From: Candidatus Kaiserbacteria bacterium
Lineage (GTDB): Bacteria > Patescibacteriota > Minisyncoccia > Phycocordibacterales > Phycocordibacteraceae
DNA: 64,000 nt
NCBI GenBank assembly: GCA_027451665.1
Contig: DAIDIW010000001.1
Coordinates: forward strand, 159,773-223,772
Direction of reading: 5' to 3'
Of this stretch, positions 2,175 to 13,052 are shown one piece after another (the stretch's first letter is position 1; every line of letters starts with the position of its first letter). The translations under genes were made by a program, and so were the position numbers. Under the pieces are notes generated by a model. It saw only the letters and a program-made list of their open reading frames with translations. It did not search any database and was not told the origin of the DNA.

Positions 2175-2222
2175 GGCGCTCCTCGCCGCCCCCTCACATA
2201 CGTGCGTGCTAGCATACGGCGC

Positions 2223-2894
2223 ATGGATACGCCTTATAAGACATACCGGGCGGTCTTGCGTATGCGCCGTCCTGAATATGAAGGCGTCGCGACCTACGTA
2301 TTTGCGTCGGAAGAACCGGTACCGTTCTCCGCAGGCGCGTATGTGCACATGCGGATCCCCGGGGTGCCCGAAGGGGAGAAGGCGGTGCGCGAATTCTCAA
2401 TCGCGTCAGCACCGGGCGACCGAGAGTTGTGGTTCGGCATAGACACGAGCTCAGGTAGCCCGTATCAGGCGGCGCTTGAGCGTCTTGCGATTGGCGAGAC
2501 CGTGGAACTCTTCAAGATTAAGACGCATTTCACCTGGCCGCCGGAAAATGAGGAGGTGGTCATGGTCGCGGGAGGTGTCGGCATCACGCCCTTCCGTTCG
2601 CAGATCATCGATCGCACGAATCGTAAGCTGCCGTTTACGCTTTCGCTCGTGCACGCCGCCCGCGGCGCGCACCTTTATGCGGAAGAGCTTGCGCCGCTCG
2701 TGAACGAGTACCACGAGACGGATCGCGCGAGCCTTACGGAGACGCTTGTCGCCGTCGCGTACGCGCATCCACGCGCGACGTATTTCATCGCCGGTTCCGA
2801 AGGTTTCGTCGCGAGTGTTGCCGGAATCCTCCGCGCACAAGGCGTCACGCGCATCGAGAGCGACAATTTCAGCGGCCTCGGCGAGCGTTTCTGA
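2223..2894 (+). CDS. FNR-like FAD/NAD(P)-binding oxidoreductase (standalone reductase module)
   Basis: R-x-F-S-I-A-S FAD-binding motif and GGVGITPF NAD(P)-binding motif. Clear paralog of the C-terminal domain of the 6515..8017 protein. Confidence 0.6.
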   Translation: MDTPYKTYRAVLRMRRPEYEGVATYVFASEEPVPFSAGAYVHMRIPGVPEGEKAVREFSIASAPGDRELWFGIDTSSGSPYQAALERLAIGETVELFKIKTHFTWPPENEEVVMVAGGVGITPFRSQIIDRTNRKLPFTLSLVHAARGAHLYAEELAPLVNEYHETDRASLTETLVAVAYAHPRATYFIAGSEGFVASVAGILRAQGVTRIESDNFSGLGERF

Positions 2895-2950
2895 GATTTT
2901 ACCGCTGTGGAAATCCTTGCGCGGTCGCTGCGCGGTATACTGCAAGCGAT

Positions 2951-4261
2951 ATGTCATTCGTCACGCTGCATCGCCACAAGGGAAAGGGGGTCGGACTCAT
3001 CGTCCTCGTCCTGCTTGCGGGAGGCGGGTACTGGCTCTACGCGCACGCGGCCGGTTCGGCATACGCGACACCTCAGGAAGCTGCGAGTGTCTACGTCCGG
3101 TTCGACATGGAGGCGTATGACAAGATCGCGCAGAACTACTGGAATAAGCTGAGCGACGCGCAGCTCGCCGAGCTCTTCACCCTGAGCGCGGACAAGGCCG
3201 CGAGCACCACCGCACTCTTGAAGGCAACCGACCGACCGACCACGGCAAAGATGCTTGCACAGATGTTCGCCATGGCGACGAGTTCGGCAGCCCGGAAGCA
3301 GCTCGCGCTCAAGACGCTCGCCGTAGCGCTCTACAATCTCGCGCCGTTCGGCCGCGATCAGCTGTTCACGAACGAGCAAACGACGGCACTGCGCCAGGAA
3401 GTGAGCAATGTGCACCCGAACGAGAACCTGTACGGCAATCTCGGACTCTCGAAGGGAGCCAGTGCGAGCGAAGTGCAGGCAGCGTATACCGCGAAGGCTA
3501 AGGCGTTGTCGGCGAGCTCGTCGCCCGCCGCAGCGCAGGCACTCCAGACAATCGCGTACGCGAAGCAGGTGCTCACGAATCCCGAGAGTAAGCAGCTCTA
3601 TGATTCCTCAGGCATACAACCTACGGTCTTTCCGCACATACTCGGCCATACGCTCTATCTCGATCTCTCGCAGATCGCGCCGACGACGCTCCAGGAGTTC
3701 GCGATCGCGGTCAACAATGCTTCCACGACGCCCGGTCTCGACAGTATGATCATCGACCTGCGCGGCAATATCGGCGGCGCGCTCGATTTCCTTCAGAATT
3801 TCCTCGGCCTTTTCATCGGTAACAATCAGTATGCATTCGACCTCTACCATCAGGGCCAGTATGAGGTGCAGCGAACCGTCCAGCCGAAGTTCGCCGAGCT
3901 CGATCGTTACACGGACATCGCCATCCTGACCGATCATATGACCCAATCGACCGCAGAACTCACGACGGCGACTTTCGAGCGCTACCATCTCGCGCACGTG
4001 GTCGGCACCACAACGCGCGGCTGGGGCACGGTAGAAAACACGTATCCGCTCAAGACCGCGCTTGACGGCTCGACCTACACGCTTCTGCTCGTGAACAGCA
4101 TCACGCTCCGTCCCGATAATCAGCCGATCGAGGGACGCGGCGTCGATCCGAACGTCAATACGAGCGTGCCGGGATGGCAGAGTAAGCTTTCGCAATACTT
4201 CCGTTCCGCAAGCCTGATTAAGGCGATTGAACAGGTGGCTGTCCAGAAACCGCTCCGGTAG
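2951..4261 (+). CDS. S41 family C-terminal processing peptidase with N-terminal membrane anchor and a J-domain-like insert
   Basis: The S41 hallmark IIDLRGNIGG is present. A ...TQSTAE...VGTTTRGWGTVEN region aligns to the Ser/Lys dyad region of Prc/CtpA. N-terminal basic stretch plus TM. Residues ~150-215 resemble a J domain without HPD. Confidence 0.7.
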   Translation: MSFVTLHRHKGKGVGLIVLVLLAGGGYWLYAHAAGSAYATPQEAASVYVRFDMEAYDKIAQNYWNKLSDAQLAELFTLSADKAASTTALLKATDRPTTAKMLAQMFAMATSSAARKQLALKTLAVALYNLAPFGRDQLFTNEQTTALRQEVSNVHPNENLYGNLGLSKGASASEVQAAYTAKAKALSASSSPAAAQALQTIAYAKQVLTNPESKQLYDSSGIQPTVFPHILGHTLYLDLSQIAPTTLQEFAIAVNNASTTPGLDSMIIDLRGNIGGALDFLQNFLGLFIGNNQYAFDLYHQGQYEVQRTVQPKFAELDRYTDIAILTDHMTQSTAELTTATFERYHLAHVVGTTTRGWGTVENTYPLKTALDGSTYTLLLVNSITLRPDNQPIEGRGVDPNVNTSVPGWQSKLSQYFRSASLIKAIEQVAVQKPLR

Positions 4262-4336
4262 CGCCGCGTTTTCGGCTTATTGCGTGTCGCCTGCGCAAGA
4301 GTACGATACGAGCATTACGAGCTAATCTTCCGATTC

Positions 4337-4597
4337 ATGATGTGGGACTACGGCTATGGCTATGGGCATCCGATGATGTGGGGCGGCGGGGGAGGCGTCA
4401 TCGGCGTCGTGTTCTCGATTTTCTGGGTGATTCTGCTTATCGTCGCGATCGTCTGGGCGATCCGGTTCTTGCGTCATTCACGCAGCAAGCACTGGGCGTT
4501 CTCGCAGAGCGCGCTCGATATACTGCGGGAACGGTATGCGAAGGGCGAGATAGATACCGCCGAATACGAGGAACGAAAGAAGACGCTCGAGAAGTAA
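4337..4597 (+). CDS. SHOCT domain membrane protein
   Basis: C-terminal DILRERYAKGEIDTAEYEERKKTLE matches the SHOCT motif. Gly-rich and hydrophobic N-terminus. The internal Met start was chosen over the track start. Confidence 0.6.
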   Translation: MMWDYGYGYGHPMMWGGGGGVIGVVFSIFWVILLIVAIVWAIRFLRHSRSKHWAFSQSALDILRERYAKGEIDTAEYEERKKTLEK

Positions 4598-4616
4598 TTG
4601 AATCGCGTCTCTTACG

Positions 4617-4644
4617 AAAACCGTCCGGTCGTGCGGACGGTTTT
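4617..4644. terminator. Bidirectional rho-independent terminator between convergent genes
   Basis: 11-bp stem AAAACCGTCCG/CGGACGGTTTT with loop GTCGTG and flanking A and T tracts, lying between a + gene end (4597) and a - gene end (4649). Confidence 0.55.
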
Positions 4645-4648
4645 CGTA

Positions 4649-5134
4649 TCACCAGGCGCCAAGCGTGAATCGGAATCTGTCCCGGAGCACGCGATCGATG
4701 CTGTAGTAACGCCAGCATTTCCCGAGCCAGAGCGCGAGAAAGACGATGATGTAAATGATCGCGGTGCCGATATCGGTCGATCCGGCGACATACGGACCGC
4801 CGAAGCCTTCTGCGGTGCTCCAGATGACGAACGCCATGAGCATGCCACCTACCATCGTGACGCGTGTCGCCGCACCGAAAATAAGCCCGAGAGCGATCGC
4901 CGTTTCGGCAACCGCGACAATGATGCCGAAGAGATGCGGATTCACGGAGACCGTCTGTATCCAGAGATGAATCCAGGCCTGCACGGCCGCGGGCTGGCCC
5001 TGTGCACCGTCCACAAGATAGGAGGTAAAATTGTTGAGGAAGGCCGGCTGCCACTTGAAGGCGGCGTCAATGAGCCAGATGAATCCGAAAAGGATGCGCA
5101 AGAGCGCGAATGACTTGTCTTCGAGAGGTCTCAT
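4649..5134 (-). CDS. DoxX family membrane protein
   Basis: DoxX-like 4-TM pattern (LLRILFGFIWLIDAAFKW...). Start taken at the internal Met. Confidence 0.65.
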   Translation of the reverse strand: MRPLEDKSFALLRILFGFIWLIDAAFKWQPAFLNNFTSYLVDGAQGQPAAVQAWIHLWIQTVSVNPHLFGIIVAVAETAIALGLIFGAATRVTMVGGMLMAFVIWSTAEGFGGPYVAGSTDIGTAIIYIIVFLALWLGKCWRYYSIDRVLRDRFRFTLGAW

Positions 5135-5238
5135 GCTTTCATGATACGGCACCATGCCGAGGAGCCGGTCCTTATGCACAAGCCCTCACAATGAATGAAA
5201 ATCCCGCGTAGACCGTAGATAGGAGAGTACACCCCACT

Positions 5239-5748
5239 ATGAAGAAAGCTATCATCGCCGCAGTAGTCGTGGCCGCCTCGGCCCTCTATCTTTTTATCCG
5301 GACGCCCGCGGCGTCCGCGACCCAGCCGCAGCCGGTTCCTATTTCAGCTAACGTACCGTCGACGACGAGCGCCGGTGCGCCGCCCGCGGGTGCAAGCCCC
5401 TCCGGTACACCGTCTTCCGGAGCGGCATCCGGGAGTGCGCCAACAGCGCCGTCCTCGGGTCAGTATAAGGACGGCACGTACACCGGTCCTTCGGTGAACG
5501 CGTATTGGGGATACGTGCAGGTCCGCGCGACTGTCTCCGGCGGAAAGCTTGTCCATATCGCGTTCCTCCAATATCCGAACGGCCACTCGGCATCCCAGTA
5601 CATAAATTCTCAGGCGATGCCGTACCTTACGCAGGAAGCGCTTTCCGTGCAGAGCGCGAATGTAAACATCATCTCGGGCGCAACGATGACCTCTATGGGT
5701 TTCCGCCAGTCGCTCGGTGCGGCGCTTTCAAAGGCTGCAAATAGCTAA
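5239..5748 (+). CDS. FMN-binding domain protein (secreted or membrane-anchored, likely flavinylation substrate)
   Basis: Signal anchor, a Pro/Ser/Ala-rich linker, and an FMN_bind-like C-terminus carrying the S-G-A-T flavinylation-type motif (ISGATMTSMGF). Confidence 0.75.
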   Translation: MKKAIIAAVVVAASALYLFIRTPAASATQPQPVPISANVPSTTSAGAPPAGASPSGTPSSGAASGSAPTAPSSGQYKDGTYTGPSVNAYWGYVQVRATVSGGKLVHIAFLQYPNGHSASQYINSQAMPYLTQEALSVQSANVNIISGATMTSMGFRQSLGAALSKAANS

Positions 5749-5749
5749 C

Positions 5750-6505
5750 ATGCGCGCGGCGCGTCTCATCATGGGCATGCCCATCGAGATAGAAATCGTG
5801 GGCGAGGGAGAATCGATACGTGCAGCGCTCGAAGATGCGTTCGCCTACTTCACGCGCGTGGACGAGGAGTTCAGCACCTACAAGGAGAGCAGCGCGATTT
5901 CCCGCATAGACCGAGGCGAACTCTCGCTTGAAGAAGCAACCGAGGAGATGCGGCACGTCTTCGCGCTTGCCAAGGCCGCCAAGGAGGAGACCAAGGGCTA
6001 TTTTGATATACGCCGGCCGGACGGACATCTCGATCCTTCCGGCATCGTAAAGGGCTGGGCAATCGAAGAAGCGGCGGCGCACATCACCGCGGAGGGCTTC
6101 AAGGATTTTTTCGTCAATGCAGGCGGAGATATCGCTTCGTCGGGGCACAACGCCGATGGCGAGCCATGGTCGGTCGGCATCAAGAATCCTTTCGCGCAGG
6201 AGGAGATCGTGAAGGTCGTCTATCCGCGGGGGCGCGGCATTGCCACCTCAGGCTCATATGTGCGCGGTGCGCATATTTACGATCCCCACGATCCTGAGCA
6301 CCCGCTCGATGAGGTAAAGAGCGTTACCGTGATAGCGCCGTCCGTCATGCGGGCAGACATGCTTGCGACCGCGGCGTTCGCCATGGGTCGCGAGGGAATA
6401 GCGTTTCTCGAGGGACTGCCGGAGGTCGAAGGCTATCAGATTGATACGACGATGACCGCGACCATGACGAGCGGCTTCGGTCGCTTCATGCAATCACACG
6501 CCTAA
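5750..6505 (+). CDS. apbE: FAD:protein FMN transferase (ApbE family)
   Basis: ApbE motifs SGIVKGWA, NAGGD and TSGSY. About 250 aa. Immediately downstream of the FMN-bind gene. Confidence 0.85.
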   Translation: MRAARLIMGMPIEIEIVGEGESIRAALEDAFAYFTRVDEEFSTYKESSAISRIDRGELSLEEATEEMRHVFALAKAAKEETKGYFDIRRPDGHLDPSGIVKGWAIEEAAAHITAEGFKDFFVNAGGDIASSGHNADGEPWSVGIKNPFAQEEIVKVVYPRGRGIATSGSYVRGAHIYDPHDPEHPLDEVKSVTVIAPSVMRADMLATAAFAMGREGIAFLEGLPEVEGYQIDTTMTATMTSGFGRFMQSHA

Positions 6506-6514
6506 TCTTTCCGT

Positions 6515-8017
6515 ATGCGCTTCATTCTCGACCGTATCGATCGCATCACCATGTATCGCCTCGTGCTGTATTACCTAGCGGTACTCCTCGTCGTTGGTGC
6601 GTTCTTCGGCGCTATTGGTACGCTCGCGCTCTCACCGGTCTCGATCCTCTGGTCTGCGCTCGTGCTTATCGCCGCAACCTGGATCGTAAATGAATTGTTC
6701 GCGTGGATCTTCGGTGTCGATACCAACCATGAATCGTTCCTCATCACGGCGCTCATCCTTGCGCTTATTCTCCCGCCGGCGGCGTTCTCTAACCTTTCCG
6801 CGACGGGTGACCTCGCGGTGGTTGGCGCGATCGCCGTCGCATCAAAATACCTGCTTTCAGCGGGAAAGAAGCACATTTTCAACCCAGCCGCTCTCGCGGC
6901 CGTGTTTGCGGCGTTTTTCCTCGCCCCGCCTACCTGGTGGGTGGGCGGTAATCTCGCGCTCCTTCCGTTCGTACTTCTCGGCGGGCTCGCCATAGCCTAC
7001 AAGATTCGCCGCTTCGATACGGTGATCGCGTTCTTTGTGGCGGCGCTCGCTACGGTCGCACTTACCTCGGGCGTCGTGCTCTCGGGGATTCAGACGACGC
7101 TCCTGTATTCGCCGCTTTTCTTCCTTGCGTTTGCAATGCTCACCGAGCCGCTCACGATGCCGCCTACGCGCGGTCTGCGTATCATCTATGCGGGCATCGT
7201 CGGCATTCTCTTTGCTCCCGCCGTACATCTGTGGTCGTTCTATTCGTCGCCTGAGCTCGGACTTGTGATCGGTAACGCGTTCGCGTATGTCGTGTCGCCG
7301 AAGGGCCGGTATTCGCTCGTACTCGTCGCGCGCCGGAAGCTCGCGGACGGTATTTATGAATTCGTCTTCCGGCCGGACCGGCCGATCCGCTTCCGGCCAG
7401 GACAGTACCTCGAGTGGACGCTCGGGCACGGCATCCCCTTTGATTCTCGCGGAAATAGGCGCTACTTCACCATTTCTTCAGCTCCGGAAGATCCGAATAT
7501 CGCGCTTGGCGTCCGCTTCTATCCTGATACTTCCGGGTTCAAGCGCGGGCTCGCGAATCTGAAGGCGGGGGATTCCATAATGGTTGGTTCGCTTGCAGGG
7601 GATTTCACACTGCCGAAGGATACCGGTAAGAAGCTTGCATTCATTGCCGGCGGCATCGGCGTCACGCCCTTCGCGTCGATGGCGCGCCACATGAATGCGT
7701 CCGGCGAGGTGCGCGATGCCGTCCTGCTTTACTCGAGTCGTCGCGCTGCGGATTTCGCCTACGGAGCAGATCTTGCAAAGGCGGCCGAGCACGGGTTGCG
7801 TACGGTCTATACGCTTACCGATGATGTTGCCCTGCAGGGTGCGCGCCAGGGGGCGATCACGGCCGCGGTCATCGCGGAAGAGATTCCGGACTATCATGAG
7901 CGCACGTTTTATGTCTCCGGACCGCCGGGCATGGTGCGCTCACTGAGGCAGCAGCTGCAGGAGCTCGGCGTCCACCGCCTCGCCATCAAGACCGATTATT
8001 TTCCGGGGCTCGCCTAG
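6515..8017 (+). CDS. Membrane oxidoreductase: RnfD/NqrB-like polytopic domain fused to an FNR-like FAD/NAD(P)-binding reductase
   Basis: The N-terminal ~250 aa is multi-TM with KKHIFNPAALA (RnfD/NqrB-like). The C-terminal ~250 aa has RRYFTISSAP (RxYS) and GGIGVTPF motifs. Confidence 0.7.
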   Translation: MRFILDRIDRITMYRLVLYYLAVLLVVGAFFGAIGTLALSPVSILWSALVLIAATWIVNELFAWIFGVDTNHESFLITALILALILPPAAFSNLSATGDLAVVGAIAVASKYLLSAGKKHIFNPAALAAVFAAFFLAPPTWWVGGNLALLPFVLLGGLAIAYKIRRFDTVIAFFVAALATVALTSGVVLSGIQTTLLYSPLFFLAFAMLTEPLTMPPTRGLRIIYAGIVGILFAPAVHLWSFYSSPELGLVIGNAFAYVVSPKGRYSLVLVARRKLADGIYEFVFRPDRPIRFRPGQYLEWTLGHGIPFDSRGNRRYFTISSAPEDPNIALGVRFYPDTSGFKRGLANLKAGDSIMVGSLAGDFTLPKDTGKKLAFIAGGIGVTPFASMARHMNASGEVRDAVLLYSSRRAADFAYGADLAKAAEHGLRTVYTLTDDVALQGARQGAITAAVIAEEIPDYHERTFYVSGPPGMVRSLRQQLQELGVHRLAIKTDYFPGLA

Positions 8018-8213
8018 CGGAGGAAGGCTGGGGAAGCGGTCTGTGTATAACATCCGCCGTACGAGCGCGCAGCTGCGCGCTCGTTTTCGCTATCCACTTA
8101 TCCACAGCAGAAGGCGCTTGACCGTGCATTTGCGTTCATGAGCCAGGGGCGTACTCTGAACTTGTTTCTCGGGGGTTTCTTCCATTACACACGTGCACGG
8201 TAATTCGCTACTT

Positions 8214-11200
8214 ATGAATCGCTTTACGCTCGTGCCCGTTTCTCTCTCTGCGCTTCTCTTTGTCGCCGGGATGTTTTTCCCGCTCACGACGATGGCGGCT
8301 TCGGTCTCGCCGGGAGATGTCGTTATTAATGAGTTCGTCTCCAACAATAACCCGAGTTCCGAATGGGTCGAGCTCTATAACACGACCGCTACTGCGGTTG
8401 ATGTGAACGGTTGGAAGCTTCAGGACCTTACCTTTACCAGCGACGTCCCGACTGGATTCGCAACGACGACCATTGATGCGACCGACGCCTTCACGGTGTC
8501 CGGTACGGCGACGACCTCGGCGACGACGATACCCGCTAACGGCTACCTGGTCGTAGACGTGAGCGGGCTGAATAACGGCGGCGACAGCATCTCGCTCTGG
8601 AACGCCACGGGCACAAAATATGATGCGGTGACGTATGGCTCGGTTTCCGGCTATACGTCGGATGTTGCCGCGCCCTCCTACGGCTATGCGGCGTATCGCG
8701 GTCCCGACGGCTCAAGCCATTGGTACCTTACGGCAACGCCCACGCAGGGCACGGAAAATACCCCCGTTATAAACGTCTCCAATACCGCAGGCCTCCTCTC
8801 GGCGCTCTCTAGTGCCCCTGCTGGCAGCACGATCATGCTTGCGGACGGCACCTATACGCTCTCGAGCACGCTCGAGATCCCGACCGCGCTCACACTCGAA
8901 GGCGCGAGCGAAGCGGGTACCGTGATCGATGCGTCTTCGGTGAGTGGCTATGCCGTGCATACGCAAGCGAGCAATGTAACGATAGAGAACCTGACCGTGA
9001 AGGGTAATCCATCCTCATCCTCTGGCAGCTATGGTCTCAAAATTGAAGGTACGACCCCGAACTCCATGCCGGGTTCGACGAGCGACGGCGTGCGAAGCAC
9101 GAATATCACTGTGCAGAACGTTACCGTCAATGATTCTTACCGGACTGGCGTGGATCTAAACGGTGTGAACGGTGTGACCCTCACGAACGTTACTGTGACG
9201 AATGTCGGAAAGGGCACAGGAATTGGTCTCACCGATGTCGATAACGCGACGCTTTCTGGCATCACGACTTCGGGCAACGCGTGGGGCGGGATCGCCGTCT
9301 ACGCATACGGAAAATACTATCCGGGAGGTTCGAGCGACATCACGCTTACCGGTACGAATAGCATAGGCGAAACCACGCTGCCTCTCTTCGGCTTCCGTAC
9401 GGAAGTCGATAACAGCGCGTACCAGATCACAAACGTCCATGTACCATCGAGCCTCTTCCCGTATGCGGTAGGTCTCCCCTCCTACTCGGCCGGTGCGACC
9501 GTGGCGTACGTTACGAATCTTTCGGACGCAGAGACGGTCGCCGCAAGCGAATCGACGGACTCATACATCACTGCAACTGCCGACGGCAGCCTCTACGTCG
9601 TCCCCGGCCTTTCTATCCAGGCGGCGGTAAATGGAGCGGCTTCCGGCGCGACCGTGCACATCGCGGCGGGCACGTATACGGAGCAGGTATCGATCGATAA
9701 GAATCTCACGCTCATGGGCGAAGGCACGTCGACGGTCATCGCGTCGCCCGACACGCTTTCGACGTCCTTCTCGACTGCCTCCGGAGCACGCAAGGCGGTC
9801 GTGTTTGCGACAGACGCGAATGACGTGAACATCACGAATCTTGAGGTCGATGGGCTCGGGAAGGGTAACGCGAACGGCAGCTTCATGGGTATCGCGTTCT
9901 ACAACGCCGGCGGTTCTATCGCCTCGACCACGGTCACCGCCGTGCGGGAGACGCCGTTCAACGGCGACCAGCAGGGGAATGCCATCTATGCCTACAATGA
10001 TGCAACGAGTACCGCGCTCTCCATCACGGACAATCTCGTGAGTGACTTCCAGAAGAACGGCATCACCACGAACGGAAGCGGCTTGACCGCGACGATCTCC
10101 GGCAACACGGTGACGGGCCAGGGTGCGACCGCAGTTACCGCCCAGAACGGCATACAAGTCGGTTTCGGCGCAGTCGGTACCGTTACCGGAAACACAGTGA
10201 ACGGAATCTACTGCCTCTATGCGAGCGTGGGCGACAACTGTACGCTCATGCCGACCGCGACCTCAACGGCAGCTGATGGCGCGGCGGCGGTGCTTCTCTA
10301 CTCGCCCGGTTCTTCCGCTACAACGACCGTGAACGACAACACCATTACCGGAAGCCAATACGGTATCTGGACGGTCGGCGCGTATGCGCTCGACGTTGAG
10401 GGGAATGCAATCACCGGCACGACGACACCGGGCAATAATTCGACCGGTGTCGCGATATGGAGCTCGGATCAATCGGGTGCCACGGAAACGAGCACTACCG
10501 GGACGATTGCCCATAATACGATTACCGACGCGGCGTATGGCGTCCTCGTACGTGATTACACGAGCGGTCCGCCAAGCCCCGCAGTGACCATAGGCACCAA
10601 TACCTTTACGAATGTCTCGGCGCCTTTGTGGACGAACACGACGCTCCAGTTCTCTGATGTCGCGGTTGAGGCAAGTTGGGCGGGCGCGGCGACGAGCACG
10701 GCGGAGACGCTCGGCGGTACGACGTACTACTACGGCGTGAATGCGTTCCCGACTATCACACAAGGCCTTGCTGCTACCGCTGCCGGTGGAACGATCCATG
10801 TCGGTGCGGGAACGTATCCAGAGAGCCTCTCAATTTCACAGTCTGTGACGCTCGACGGCGCGCAAGCAGGAGTCGATGCGCGAACGCGTGACGTGGGTGG
10901 TGCCCAAGATGCCCAAGAGTCGATCCTCTCGGTAAGTTCCGGGAATGCGATAACGGTTCACGCGGGAACCGTGACTATCGATGGTTTCAAGTTTGAGCAG
11001 AGCGGGACGGGCGCCGGCATCACCGTGCTCGGCGGCAGCGGGGATGTGATCAAGAATTCAATCTTCTCGAGCCCGAACGGCTATGCGGCTGACGGTATCT
11101 TCTCTGCGGCGACCCTGGACCACAATCGGGTCGAAGATTCGAAGATTGGGTTCGAGGCGAATAGTGCGGCTGCGAACGATACTACGATCACTGCGAATCT

Positions 11201-13052
11201 CTTCGATAATTCAAGCGACTACGATATCAACTTCATCGAAGGCGGAAGCGGTATAACGGTCTCGGATAACGAACGCATGGGCGGCGGCGCCGGAAACTTC
11301 ATCGTCCTTTTCAAGACGACGGGAGCAAACGTAACTGGTAACCAATCAACAAGCGCGATCACCTCTTCCGCGATCTTTGTGGGAGGCGGTACGAGCGACA
11401 CAACCATCAGCGGCAATACGCTAACAGGCGGAACGGCGACCGCTGTGAACATCAGCAACATTATCGGTGCGCCGAATACGGGGACGCTCGTAATCGCTCA
11501 TAACGATCTCTCCGGTAATGCGAAGGGTGTCTACGTTGCATCGAATGCGCTCGGGACGGGCGCGACGATAGACGTGCATGACAACAATCTCTCCGGTGAT
11601 ACCACTGCGGGTCTCGATAACGAAGCGTCTGCGTTCACAGTGGATGCTTCGCCTGATTGGTGGGGAGACTTGAGCGGGCCGGCAACCTCGACAAATCCGA
11701 CCGCGACCGGCTCAGCGATCGTGGGCACAGGCCCCGTGACCTATACGCCGTGGTACAAGGACGCCGCGATGACCACCTTGAAGTGGCCGGTGTATACGAG
11801 CGGAACCTCTGCGTCGACAACCATCGCAAGCGAGACGACGCTCACCGGAACGAGTACGACCGCAAGCAGCACGAGCGTTACGGTCACGATTCCGAGCGGC
11901 ACTACCGTAACGGGCAATAGCGCCTGGGACGGCACTATCATGGCGCCGACTGCGTCATCGACGACGCTCTCGCTCCCGGGCTCCACGGTTACCACGAGCG
12001 CGGCAATCACGGTCGGTTCGAGCCAATACGATCTGTACTTCAGCACGCCGGTGAAGCTCTTCTTCGCCGGTGAAGCCGGGAAAAGCGTCGGCTTCTATAA
12101 CGCGGCAGGAGTGTTCTCTCAGATTACGGAACACTGTGACGGTGTCGGCACGCCCACAGTTGGCGGTACGGCTCTGGCGACGACCTCGCCGGGTGAAGCG
12201 TGCAGCATTGCGGACGGTTCAGACCTCATCGTATGGACGACGCACTTCTCGACCTTCGTGACGTATACCTCGACACCGAACGCGCCGGTCATCTCGCCCG
12301 ACGGGGCGGTGTTCCACGGGACGGTGAACGTCACGATGGACGATACGGCAAGCAATGCCTACGTTCGATACACCACTGACGGCACCGATCCGACCTGTTC
12401 GACTGGTAGTGGATACGCGAATGGCCAGGTGCTGTCCTTCAGTGATGCCGTGACCCTGAAAGCCATTCGCTGCGAAACCGGCGGTACGGTGTACTCGACG
12501 ATCGCAAGCGCATCCTTCAGTCCTGCGGCAGGAGGGGGTTCGGGCGGCGGAGGTAGCAGCGGCGGCGGCGGTTCGGGCGGCGGAGGCGCAATCTCCCTGC
12601 CTCCCGTAACGCAGACGCAAACGTCTACGCAGAACCAGAACCAGAATCAGAATCAAAACCAGGGTGGAGAAGTGCTTGGTGCGGCTGCGTACAACTTCGC
12701 GCACAATCTTGCGCTTGGCGCACGCGGCACGGACGTCCTGCAGCTGCAGCAGTACCTTATTGCGGAAGGCTTCGACATTCCTGCGATTACGAAAGCGCAT
12801 GCGGCCTTCGGCTACTTCGGTAGCGAGACGAAGGCGGCGGTGATCGCCTTCCAGAAGGCAAACAAGATTGCTGCAACTGGTTATGTAGGACCGCTCACGC
12901 GCGCACTCCTCAACAAGGGCGTGATCAACACGACTCCCGAGCAGGCGACGAACCTGACGCAGTCTCAGGTGAACTCAATTCTCTCGGTCCTCGAGTCCTT
13001 CAATGTGGACCCTGCGACGCTCGCGAAGGTGAAAGCGGCGCTCGGACAATAG
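8214..13052 (+). CDS. Giant secreted surface protein: lamin-tail domain, parallel beta-helix repeats, chitobiase/Hex-C-like domain, Gly/Ser and Gln/Asn linkers, and a C-terminal PG_binding_1 domain
   Basis: Signal peptide (MNRF...TTMAASV). LTD motif GDVVINEF...WVELYN...NGWKLQD. Many NxTxxNxT beta-helix turns. (GGGS)n and (QN)n linkers. C-terminal LQLQQYL...FGYFGSETKAAVIAFQ peptidoglycan-binding fold. Confidence 0.8.
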   Translation: MNRFTLVPVSLSALLFVAGMFFPLTTMAASVSPGDVVINEFVSNNNPSSEWVELYNTTATAVDVNGWKLQDLTFTSDVPTGFATTTIDATDAFTVSGTATTSATTIPANGYLVVDVSGLNNGGDSISLWNATGTKYDAVTYGSVSGYTSDVAAPSYGYAAYRGPDGSSHWYLTATPTQGTENTPVINVSNTAGLLSALSSAPAGSTIMLADGTYTLSSTLEIPTALTLEGASEAGTVIDASSVSGYAVHTQASNVTIENLTVKGNPSSSSGSYGLKIEGTTPNSMPGSTSDGVRSTNITVQNVTVNDSYRTGVDLNGVNGVTLTNVTVTNVGKGTGIGLTDVDNATLSGITTSGNAWGGIAVYAYGKYYPGGSSDITLTGTNSIGETTLPLFGFRTEVDNSAYQITNVHVPSSLFPYAVGLPSYSAGATVAYVTNLSDAETVAASESTDSYITATADGSLYVVPGLSIQAAVNGAASGATVHIAAGTYTEQVSIDKNLTLMGEGTSTVIASPDTLSTSFSTASGARKAVVFATDANDVNITNLEVDGLGKGNANGSFMGIAFYNAGGSIASTTVTAVRETPFNGDQQGNAIYAYNDATSTALSITDNLVSDFQKNGITTNGSGLTATISGNTVTGQGATAVTAQNGIQVGFGAVGTVTGNTVNGIYCLYASVGDNCTLMPTATSTAADGAAAVLLYSPGSSATTTVNDNTITGSQYGIWTVGAYALDVEGNAITGTTTPGNNSTGVAIWSSDQSGATETSTTGTIAHNTITDAAYGVLVRDYTSGPPSPAVTIGTNTFTNVSAPLWTNTTLQFSDVAVEASWAGAATSTAETLGGTTYYYGVNAFPTITQGLAATAAGGTIHVGAGTYPESLSISQSVTLDGAQAGVDARTRDVGGAQDAQESILSVSSGNAITVHAGTVTIDGFKFEQSGTGAGITVLGGSGDVIKNSIFSSPNGYAADGIFSAATLDHNRVEDSKIGFEANSAAANDTTITANLFDNSSDYDINFIEGGSGITVSDNERMGGGAGNFIVLFKTTGANVTGNQSTSAITSSAIFVGGGTSDTTISGNTLTGGTATAVNISNIIGAPNTGTLVIAHNDLSGNAKGVYVASNALGTGATIDVHDNNLSGDTTAGLDNEASAFTVDASPDWWGDLSGPATSTNPTATGSAIVGTGPVTYTPWYKDAAMTTLKWPVYTSGTSASTTIASETTLTGTSTTASSTSVTVTIPSGTTVTGNSAWDGTIMAPTASSTTLSLPGSTVTTSAAITVGSSQYDLYFSTPVKLFFAGEAGKSVGFYNAAGVFSQITEHCDGVGTPTVGGTALATTSPGEACSIADGSDLIVWTTHFSTFVTYTSTPNAPVISPDGAVFHGTVNVTMDDTASNAYVRYTTDGTDPTCSTGSGYANGQVLSFSDAVTLKAIRCETGGTVYSTIASASFSPAAGGGSGGGGSSGGGGSGGGGAISLPPVTQTQTSTQNQNQNQNQNQGGEVLGAAAYNFAHNLALGARGTDVLQLQQYLIAEGFDIPAITKAHAAFGYFGSETKAAVIAFQKANKIAATGYVGPLTRALLNKGVINTTPEQATNLTQSQVNSILSVLESFNVDPATLAKVKAALGQ
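12625..12663 (+). repeat. In-frame hexanucleotide (CAGAAC-like) tandem repeat encoding (QN)n; an adjacent GGC/AGC-rich tract (12535..12594) encodes a (GGGS)n-like Gly/Ser linker
   Basis: Direct reading shows cagaaccagaaccagaatcagaatcaaaaccag. The units are multiples of 3, so length changes would not shift the frame. Confidence 0.5.

Follow-up and report, generated by a model that had tools for sequence, protein, structure and literature searches.

Bacteria of the candidate phyla radiation (CPR; Patescibacteria) are thought to be fermentative and to live without respiratory chains, and a gene cluster that resembles a transmembrane electron-transfer device in one of their genomes raises the question of what it carries electrons from and to. 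The cluster considered here lies at positions 5239..8017 (forward strand) of a 64,000-nucleotide stretch of the Candidatus Kaiserbacteria contig DAIDIW010000001.1 (the whole stretch is called the window, and positions are counted from its first letter). It encodes, in this order, an FMN_bind protein (that is, a protein with a flavin mononucleotide (FMN)-binding domain), the flavin transferase ApbE and a fusion of an RnfD/NqrB-like membrane domain to a module resembling ferredoxin-NADP reductase (FNR). An earlier interpretation made from the letters alone (the sequence-only reading) took these proteins for a wire that connects NAD(P)H to an extracytoplasmic flavoprotein, and profile, fold, topology and linkage tests support this. 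We consider it probable that the operon specifies an NQR/RNF-like two-subunit, all-flavin transmembrane wire together with its maturation enzyme. The system is real but was described already from genome surveys of 2021 and 2024, and so is not new.

A compact, cysteine-free operon

The positions of the open reading frames (ORFs), all of which an ORF check confirmed at the coordinates of the sequence-only reading, together with their spacing and profile matches, bear out a tight three-gene operon. The FMN_bind gene (169 amino acids; 5239..5748, +; PF04205, E = 1.6e-6) has a single base between its stop codon and the ATG of the ApbE gene (251 amino acids from this ATG; 5750..6505, +; PF02424, E = 1.2e-44), and a further 9 nucleotides (nt) separate the latter from the fusion gene (500 amino acids; 6515..8017, +; PF03116 and PF00175). 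A terminator-like GC hairpin (8065..8078, +) with a T-rich tail to 8088 begins 48 nt 3′ of the fusion stop codon and likely marks the end of the operon, although it is a consensus match only, of a kind no commoner here than in shuffled sequence. None of the three proteins contains a single cysteine, which rules out any Fe–S cluster and obliges the chain to run on flavins alone.

The membrane subunit has an RnfD/NqrB fold

The membrane domain of the fusion (residues 1–262; 6515..7300, +) scores 24.3 bits against PF03116 (NQR2_RnfD_RnfE) within the full protein and 27.8 bits when isolated, against a gathering score of 27.7, and the same family was matched by 14 of 14 homologous membrane domains. 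As full-length PDB profile and Foldseek searches were dominated by matches to the FNR domain, the membrane domain was modelled and searched alone. AlphaFold2 gave confident models, with a predicted local distance difference test score (pLDDT) of 85.3 and a predicted template modelling (TM) score of 0.71 for the full-length fusion, and a pLDDT of 79.6 for the membrane domain by itself. With this membrane-only model the top 14 Foldseek matches in the PDB were all RnfD or NqrB (TM 0.56–0.73, E = 5e-5 to 3e-3); the next were urea transporters (E > 0.3), which are known structural relatives of RnfD/NqrB (PMC12174285). A profile built from the homologous membrane domains had RnfD of Azotobacter vinelandii (8ahx_D, E = 0.0047) as its sole PDB match. 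The score against the curated rnfD model TIGR01946 was only 17.4 bits, compared with a cut-off of 207. The domain thus has the RnfD/NqrB fold but is not a genuine RnfD; PF03116, Foldseek and the PDB profile agree in relating it to this fold, as first proposed, and the HIFNPAA motif on which that proposal drew is present at residues 120–126.

Alignment with Escherichia coli RsxD shows what was kept and what was lost. About 73 outer-loop residues are gone, including the flavinylated T187 (GISQAT), and no [ST]GA[ST] motif occurs anywhere in the fusion sequence, whereas the motifs FNPA (6872..6892) and LT(D/E)P (7139..7150) are retained. T140, a conserved Thr/Ser in the context A-T-W-W, was considered as a relic flavinylation site and rejected, as it aligns with RsxD QMTSW, upstream of T187. 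In NqrB, riboflavin is liganded by N200, N203 and D346, the last within a T-D-P motif (PMC9293633). T210-E211-P212 and N123 of FNPA are invariant in the fusion family, E211 being the counterpart of NqrB D346, and these residues are an indirect sign that the inner flavin pocket may be kept.

All topologies given here are rule-based predictions (that is, from hydropathy and charge bias) and not the output of a trained predictor. Across 26 homologues, Lys/Arg residues average 2.1 at the N-terminus, 1.9 in loop 4–5, 1.8 in loop 6–7 and 4.4 after helix 10, and are essentially absent from the odd-numbered loops. This distribution implies ten helices with both ends inside, and therefore a cytoplasmic FNR module.

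The FNR-like module (residues 266–500; 7310..8017, +) belongs to the ferredoxin-NADP reductase superfamily and is of the flavin adenine dinucleotide (FAD)- and NAD(P)H-binding type. PF00175 matches residues 376–478 (E = 4.5e-13), the PDB profile search of the fusion returned many FNR-family reductases including NqrF, and NCBIfam gave only generic FNR-family similarity, including nqrF, in the C-terminal half, which superposes on 4eh1 in Foldseek (target-normalised TM 0.84, root-mean-square deviation 2.5 Å). The family match, the fold match and the Lys/Arg topology together uphold the proposed cytoplasmic FNR-like domain. One of the two motifs quoted for it, GGIGVTPF, is found at residues 379–386 (7649..7672); the other, given as RxYS, is in fact R-x-F-T, within RRYFTISS at residues 315–322 (7457..7480). 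As the fusion has no cysteine, the module cannot carry a 2Fe–2S domain.

An FMN_bind partner predicted to be exported

The FMN_bind protein begins with a signal-anchor (MKK followed by 17 hydrophobic residues, with a possible AxA site), continues through a linker rich in Pro, Ser, Ala and Gly, and ends in a compact FMN-binding domain at residues 80–166. This domain aligns with the solved FMN-binding domain 8p2a (E = 1.6e-14) with the SGAT motif (residues 146–149; 5674..5685, +) in register; pairwise similarity to E. coli RsxG was not significant. With the flavinylation motif defined as in PMC10979944, [ST]GA[ST] was found in all 53 homologues scored, as SGAT in 51, SGAS in one and TGAT in one, the single TGAT match sitting at residue 16, outside the FMN-binding domain. 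Thr149 is the predicted site of the FMN phosphoester, and the protein is presumed to be both the substrate of ApbE and the outer end of the wire.

Homologues of this protein have one N-terminal hydrophobic segment, preceded by a net charge of +2.8 and followed by one of 0; in 53 of 53 this bias points to an N-in/C-out anchor. As the anchor is more positive before the helix in every case, the FMN-binding domain should lie outside, which is where the sequence-only reading had placed its secreted or membrane-anchored S-G-A-T protein; the PF04205 match, the position of SGAT and the signal-anchor all accord with that description. Of the two outcomes that the sequence-only reading had named as contradicting it, a cytoplasmic FMN-bind domain and a membrane domain unrelated to RnfD/NqrB, neither was obtained.

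In the actinobacterial loci L086 and L087 (related loci are cited by our L numbers) the FMN_bind-like substrates carry a classic lipoprotein signal. These partners (L086:4658-5128, L087:4616-5086) had no Pfam match in precomputed tables and show V-A-G-S-S-L-T-S instead of SGAT, so that the residue flavinylated in them may be a Ser with non-canonical surroundings.

An ApbE without an export signal

By fold and profile the second protein is predicted to be an FAD:protein FMN transferase. In addition to its PF02424 match it aligns with Vibrio cholerae ApbE (6nxi, E = 1e-20), GAHIYDP lying opposite YSHIIDP; the His of this motif we take to be the catalytic base. The identification of the gene as a flavin transferase is thus supported, but the absence of an export signal had been overlooked. 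Neither a signal peptide nor a lipobox nor a transmembrane helix is present, and the maximum 19-residue Kyte-Doolittle hydropathy of the protein is 1.31. The longest possible ORF, from an in-frame GTG at 5717, adds 11 residues to the ATG form and is preceded directly by an in-frame stop. All 55 CPR homologues start M-(K/R)-x-T-R-(I/L)-(I/L)-M-G-M-P even when the longest ORF is taken, and in none of the 55 does a hydrophobic stretch precede the conserved IMGMP start. ApbE is likewise leaderless on a Mesorhizobium plasmid (L084:7228-7992) and in Pseudarthrobacter-type loci (L085:7066-7938, L086:5132-6004). No second ApbE or FMN_bind, and hence no exported ApbE, was found in the window.

Characterized ApbEs that act on exported substrates are secreted lipoproteins, and all substrates known for leaderless ApbEs are cytoplasmic (PMC12052999); the available portions of the two genome surveys (PMC8238504, PMC11334425) contain no discussion of an ApbE without a signal peptide. 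The simplest reconciliation of a leaderless enzyme with an exported substrate would be flavinylation before or during export. We tentatively propose, as a possibility that falls well short of probable, that the operon ApbE is cytoplasmic and adds FMN to FMN_bind before or during Sec-dependent export, the two-protein wire being perhaps the main NAD(P)H outlet of CPR bacteria. If true, cytoplasmic flavinylation would use cytoplasmic FAD and spare flavin export, a route that has not been described for extracytoplasmic flavoproteins.

Conservation and spread of the operon

Relatives of the fusion protein number in the thousands. The closest 120 are all of about 500 amino acids and, where a source is named, come from Patescibacteria/Parcubacteria-type metagenome-assembled genomes (MAGs); one relative, present in NCBI, is 100% identical. 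Among GTDB species representatives we confirmed at least 554 loci (of 600 candidate stretches), and a membrane-domain profile recovered 541 clusters at 50% identity (E ≤ 1e-30), mostly of 490–515 amino acids.

Gene order was counted in 70 related loci with enough upstream sequence. FMN_bind precedes the fusion, with or without an intervening ApbE, in 60 of them (33 as FMN_bind–ApbE–fusion, the order of the window, and 27 as FMN_bind–fusion); an FMN_bind gene occurs in 63 and an ApbE within 8 kb in 50. The three-gene architecture, which the sequence-only reading had suggested looking for in ApbE-neighbourhood surveys, is that of the published NQR/RNF-like class. The order is conserved at about 50% protein identity, recurs in three phyla and goes with closely spaced or overlapping stop and start codons, all of which makes it very improbable that the three genes are adjacent by chance and do not cooperate.

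Clustering of the neighbours of 80 related loci left FMN_bind and ApbE as the only conserved ones. An NAD-dependent D-2-hydroxyacid dehydrogenase lies near the operon in 23 of the 80, an extracytoplasmic function (ECF) sigma factor also in 23 and a 237-amino-acid membrane protein in 16; none of these three families occurs in the window. In many CPR loci (L008, L013, L014, L017, L028, L030, L043, L056 and others) the D-isomer 2-hydroxyacid dehydrogenase stands directly 5′ of FMN_bind on the same strand, and this neighbour hints at a link to NADH balance in fermentation. In roughly 15–20 loci (L012, L020–L022, L027, L034, L040, L042, L062 and others) the ECF sigma factor, followed by the 237-amino-acid protein (multi-pass, without a Pfam match, and possibly an anti-sigma factor), lies 5′ of the operon, a context that suggests envelope-stress control.

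The same operon is found outside the CPR. The 460-kb plasmid pB2-1-1 of the cultured Mesorhizobium sp. B2-1-1 (L084; NZ_CP083955.1, 188558–192989) carries all three genes, its fusion being 47.5% identical to the CPR protein over 99% of the latter, and the genes next to them encode a VIT family protein, a cytochrome b/b6-domain and a PepSY protein, and a two-component system; this copy suggests horizontal transfer and an iron-related role. Pseudarthrobacter-type chromosomes (L086, L087) have the same operon, and many Arthrobacter and Pseudarthrobacter genomes have an annotated protein closely homologous to the fusion. A 19-kb record labelled 'Pseudomonas sp. DR48 plasmid pDR48-1' (L085; NZ_CP081947.1) has a GC content of 0.67, ORF translations that read as arginyl-tRNA synthetase-like, diaminopimelate decarboxylase-like and large helicase-like genes, and a fusion protein 100% identical to that of Pseudarthrobacter sp. 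CC12, and probably represents a fragment of actinobacterial DNA that was mislabelled or came in as a contaminant. Fusion loci labelled as Hyphomicrobiales, Acidobacteriaceae and Alphaproteobacteria MAGs (L054, L066 and L080), about 50% identical to the window, reflect either mis-binning or real transfer, which the Mesorhizobium plasmid shows to be possible.

Relation to known systems

According to the available text of Méheust et al. (2021, eLife; PMC8238504), 'NQR/RNF-like systems' are flavinylation clusters with a fusion of NqrB/RnfD (PF03116) to PF00175, the fusion gene being no more than five genes away from one for ApbE or FMN_bind; unidirectional transfer from NAD(P)H to extracytosolic FMN was proposed for them, and VIT1 neighbours were reported in six clusters. 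Huang et al. (2024, mSystems; PMC11334425), as far as that text is available, derived by AlphaFold-multimer a two-subunit complex with FMN_bind docked on the outer face of an NqrB-like subunit that lacks the flavinylation site (that is, the conserved Thr), and suggested that the covalent FMN of the partner visits the site at which the membrane subunit binds a flavin non-covalently. The same portions of the two papers place the class mainly in Actinobacteria and CPR, with 127 genomes reported. In the window PF03116, PF00175 and the proximity of both partner genes, immediately 5′ of the fusion, are all present; by the published operational definition it is therefore a further instance of this known kind. 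Architecture, lost Thr and direction are the same and nothing differs in kind, but the family found here (at least 554 GTDB species loci) looks much larger than reported. The accessible part of PMC8238504 states that genes without predicted signal peptides were discarded and calls CPR 'strikingly underrepresented'; the signal-peptide filter may contribute to this underrepresentation.

Comparison with partner genes of better-known systems bears out the further claim that the wire is related to, but simpler than, the ApbE-associated NQR/RNF and Listeria systems. With the RnfC–RnfD–RnfG branch of RNF (8ahx, 7zc6, 9eri) it shares the RnfD fold, an outer partner with covalent FMN, an inner NAD-linked flavoprotein and the motifs FNPA and T(D/E)P, but it has no RnfA/E, RnfB, RnfC or Fe–S, the RnfD loop is deleted and an FNR-type FAD module replaces RnfC. 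Neither in the operon nor among the recurrent neighbours of the 80 loci did we find RnfA/E (NqrD/E) or RnfB/C (NqrA/F). Na+-NQR (NqrB, NqrC, NqrF) has in common with it the NqrB fold, an ApbE-matured FMN_bind protein and the NqrF-like C-terminal FNR module; the operon, in contrast, has no NqrF 2Fe–2S domain, no NqrA/D/E and no N-terminal amphipathic helices (the NqrB quinone site according to an RNF/NQR review), and its B-type subunit would conduct electrons outward, not inward.

A cytoplasmic FNR-like dehydrogenase that feeds a transmembrane redox domain for outward delivery is also the plan of NOX/FRE-type (for example, SpNOX, 8qt6) and MsrQ-like systems, and SpNOX was among the Foldseek matches, through the FNR module. 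Those systems use a transmembrane bis-heme b, whereas the domain described here is heme-free and cysteine-free, with an RnfD fold, and presumably flavin-based. In Listeria extracellular electron transfer (Ndh2, EetA/B, PplA, FmnB), the outward path likewise terminates in an FMN_bind protein that is flavinylated by an ApbE-type enzyme. Listeria FmnB is a lipoprotein, whereas the ApbE of the operon is leaderless. FmnB is reported to be extracytosolic (PMC9973259, available text). The operon also has no quinone step, no EetA/B and no Ndh2-type gene, and the match to the PplA model NF041941 is 15.8 bits against a cut-off of 325.

Proposed mechanism and its alternatives

The same model that we favour was proposed in PMC8238504 and PMC11334425, as far as their available sections show. 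NAD(P)H would reduce the FAD bound to the FNR-like module on the cytoplasmic side, and electrons would enter the RnfD/NqrB-fold domain, probably via a non-covalent flavin in the riboflavin pocket, before reaching the FMN that ApbE would have attached to Thr149 of FMN_bind at the outer face, from which they would pass to an extracytoplasmic acceptor. Such a path would be equivalent to the RnfC–RnfD–RnfG half of RNF operating outward from NADH, with the FNR module standing in for RnfC and the tethered FMN of the partner for the covalent FMN of RnfD. In RnfD/NqrB the riboflavin lies on the cytoplasmic side and the FMN on the periplasmic side, about 8 Å apart (PMC12174285), and the tethered FMN of the partner could therefore take the place that loss of the outer loop has left empty. 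The cofactors, the direction of electron flow, preference for NADH or NADPH and the nature of the acceptor are all inferred.

Several points weigh against this reading. The available parts of PMC8238504 and PMC11334425 report no experiment on the class. RNF bridges riboflavin and the NAD site by Fe–S clusters, whereas here nothing would bridge FAD and the membrane flavin. The correspondence of NqrB N200/N203 with H120/N123 was drawn through RsxD and not from a direct alignment with NqrB. ApbE is leaderless although its FMN_bind substrate is exported, which leaves a step of biogenesis unexplained, and among the clustered neighbours of the 80 loci no gene for an acceptor was found to be conserved beside the operon.

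To our knowledge, CPR bacteria are otherwise without obvious redox pumps, and the operon might instead encode an energy-conserving mini-pump, in which the passage of electrons across the RnfD/NqrB-fold domain is tied to the movement of Na+ or H+ and the module makes or uses a membrane potential. RnfD/NqrB is part of the ion-translocating core of RNF/NQR and shares its fold with urea and ammonium channels (PMC12174285), and three intramembrane acidic residues (E73, E211 and E247) are invariant in the fusion family. However, current models of NQR/RNF require, for the ion switch driven by redox changes, RnfA/E (NqrD/E) and their intramembrane 2Fe–2S cluster (PMC12174285), which are absent from the operon and its recurrent neighbours, and the NqrB pocket formerly assigned to Na+ entry has been reassigned to riboflavin binding (PMC9293633); we regard a pump as unlikely. 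Nor does the sequence fix a direction, and RNF itself is reversible (PMC12174285), so that an external donor might reduce NAD(P)+ inside or the wire might equilibrate two pools. We hold this to be a decidedly slim prospect, given that transfer from flavin to NAD(P)+ would be uphill without energy input, that coupling subunits are missing, and that neighbours such as the D-2-hydroxyacid dehydrogenase of 23 of the 80 loci fit NADH disposal better. The potential of NAD(P)H is about −320 mV. That of a related flavinylated FMN-binding protein is about −184 mV (PMC12052999).

The missing export signal invites a different location for the flavoprotein: FMN_bind could be flavinylated in the cytoplasm and stay at the inner face or in the RnfD-like cavity, with a membrane component such as the DoxX-like protein or a quinone as acceptor. 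ApbE lacks an export signal in every lineage examined, known leaderless ApbEs serve cytoplasmic substrates (PMC12052999), and a DoxX-like gene adjoins the operon in the sub-clade of the window. We nevertheless think an inner-face flavoprotein improbable in view of the N-in/C-out charge bias of all 53 anchors and the classic lipoprotein signals of the actinobacterial orthologues; moreover, the FMN site of RnfD/NqrB faces the periplasm (PMC12174285) and the published AlphaFold-multimer model, in the available text, puts FMN_bind on the outer face (PMC11334425). The outward NAD(P)H-to-flavoprotein wire thus remains the reading that we prefer.

Neighbouring genes

A second FNR-like protein is encoded upstream of the operon (2202..2894, +; 210–230 amino acids by start codon), which the sequence-only reading had regarded as an obvious paralog of the fused reductase and had placed at 2223..2894. 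The ORF is real, but the Met at 2223 is internal to the ORF 2202..2894, and the NCBI call is of 210 amino acids from 2262. The two reductases align end to end with only 28% identity (E = 3e-17) and share a C-terminal D-x-F-x-G-L ending, and the standalone protein is closer to the fused domain (55 bits) than to the solved FNRs, none of which it matches with more than 31 bits. It is only distantly homologous to the fused reductase and is not co-conserved: no such gene was found around the fusion in the 80 related loci, and it is not a conserved partner of the operon. It represents a small separate family whose few homologues occur in unrelated redox or stress contexts, which points to a redox or stress role apart from the operon, and the protein is probably functionally independent of it. 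Such homologues (L081:6672-8687 and L082) adjoin DoxX, an aldo-keto reductase and a pirin in one genome and lie, in another, in a region that also encodes an MsrA/MsrB–DM13 protein and a MerT-like protein.

Between the two reductase genes the sequence-only reading had placed a DoxX protein and an S41 peptidase. The peptidase is well supported (2951..4261; E = 3e-21), whereas the DoxX assignment of the membrane protein at 4649..5179 (−) is sub-threshold (17.8 bits against a gathering score of 23.6, E = 0.005). The DoxX-like gene is divergent from the operon across a 59-nt gap, an arrangement that L003, L004 and L033, the three closest loci, also have, and in about nine other loci the fusion has a DoxX-like gene of 28% identity nearby; the protein may be an associated component in the sub-clade of the window. 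The membrane-anchored S41 peptidase contains a DnaJ-like segment (residues 159–218, 33 bits) that lacks the HPD motif and is odd for a protein predicted to face outward. Directly 3′ of the operon (8193..13052) lies a gene for a 1619-amino-acid protein with a lamin-tail domain, right-handed beta-helix repeats, an Fn3-associated domain and a C-terminal peptidoglycan-binding domain, which is not conserved at that place in related loci.

Implications

The significance of the operon belongs to the published class and not to the instance in the window. What is added here is that the class is much commoner than first reported and that its consistently leaderless ApbE poses a concrete question of biogenesis; the residual interest lies in this enzyme, in the external acceptor and in the cultivable hosts. 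Its hosts include cultivable Arthrobacter and Pseudarthrobacter, and a Mesorhizobium plasmid also carries it, so that the class is genetically testable. In the CPR, where such a module would be among the few membrane redox devices, the cysteine-free flavin wire appears to be far more widespread than the published survey suggested, and the class could underlie iron reduction, defence against oxygen and other oxidants, or redox exchange with a host.

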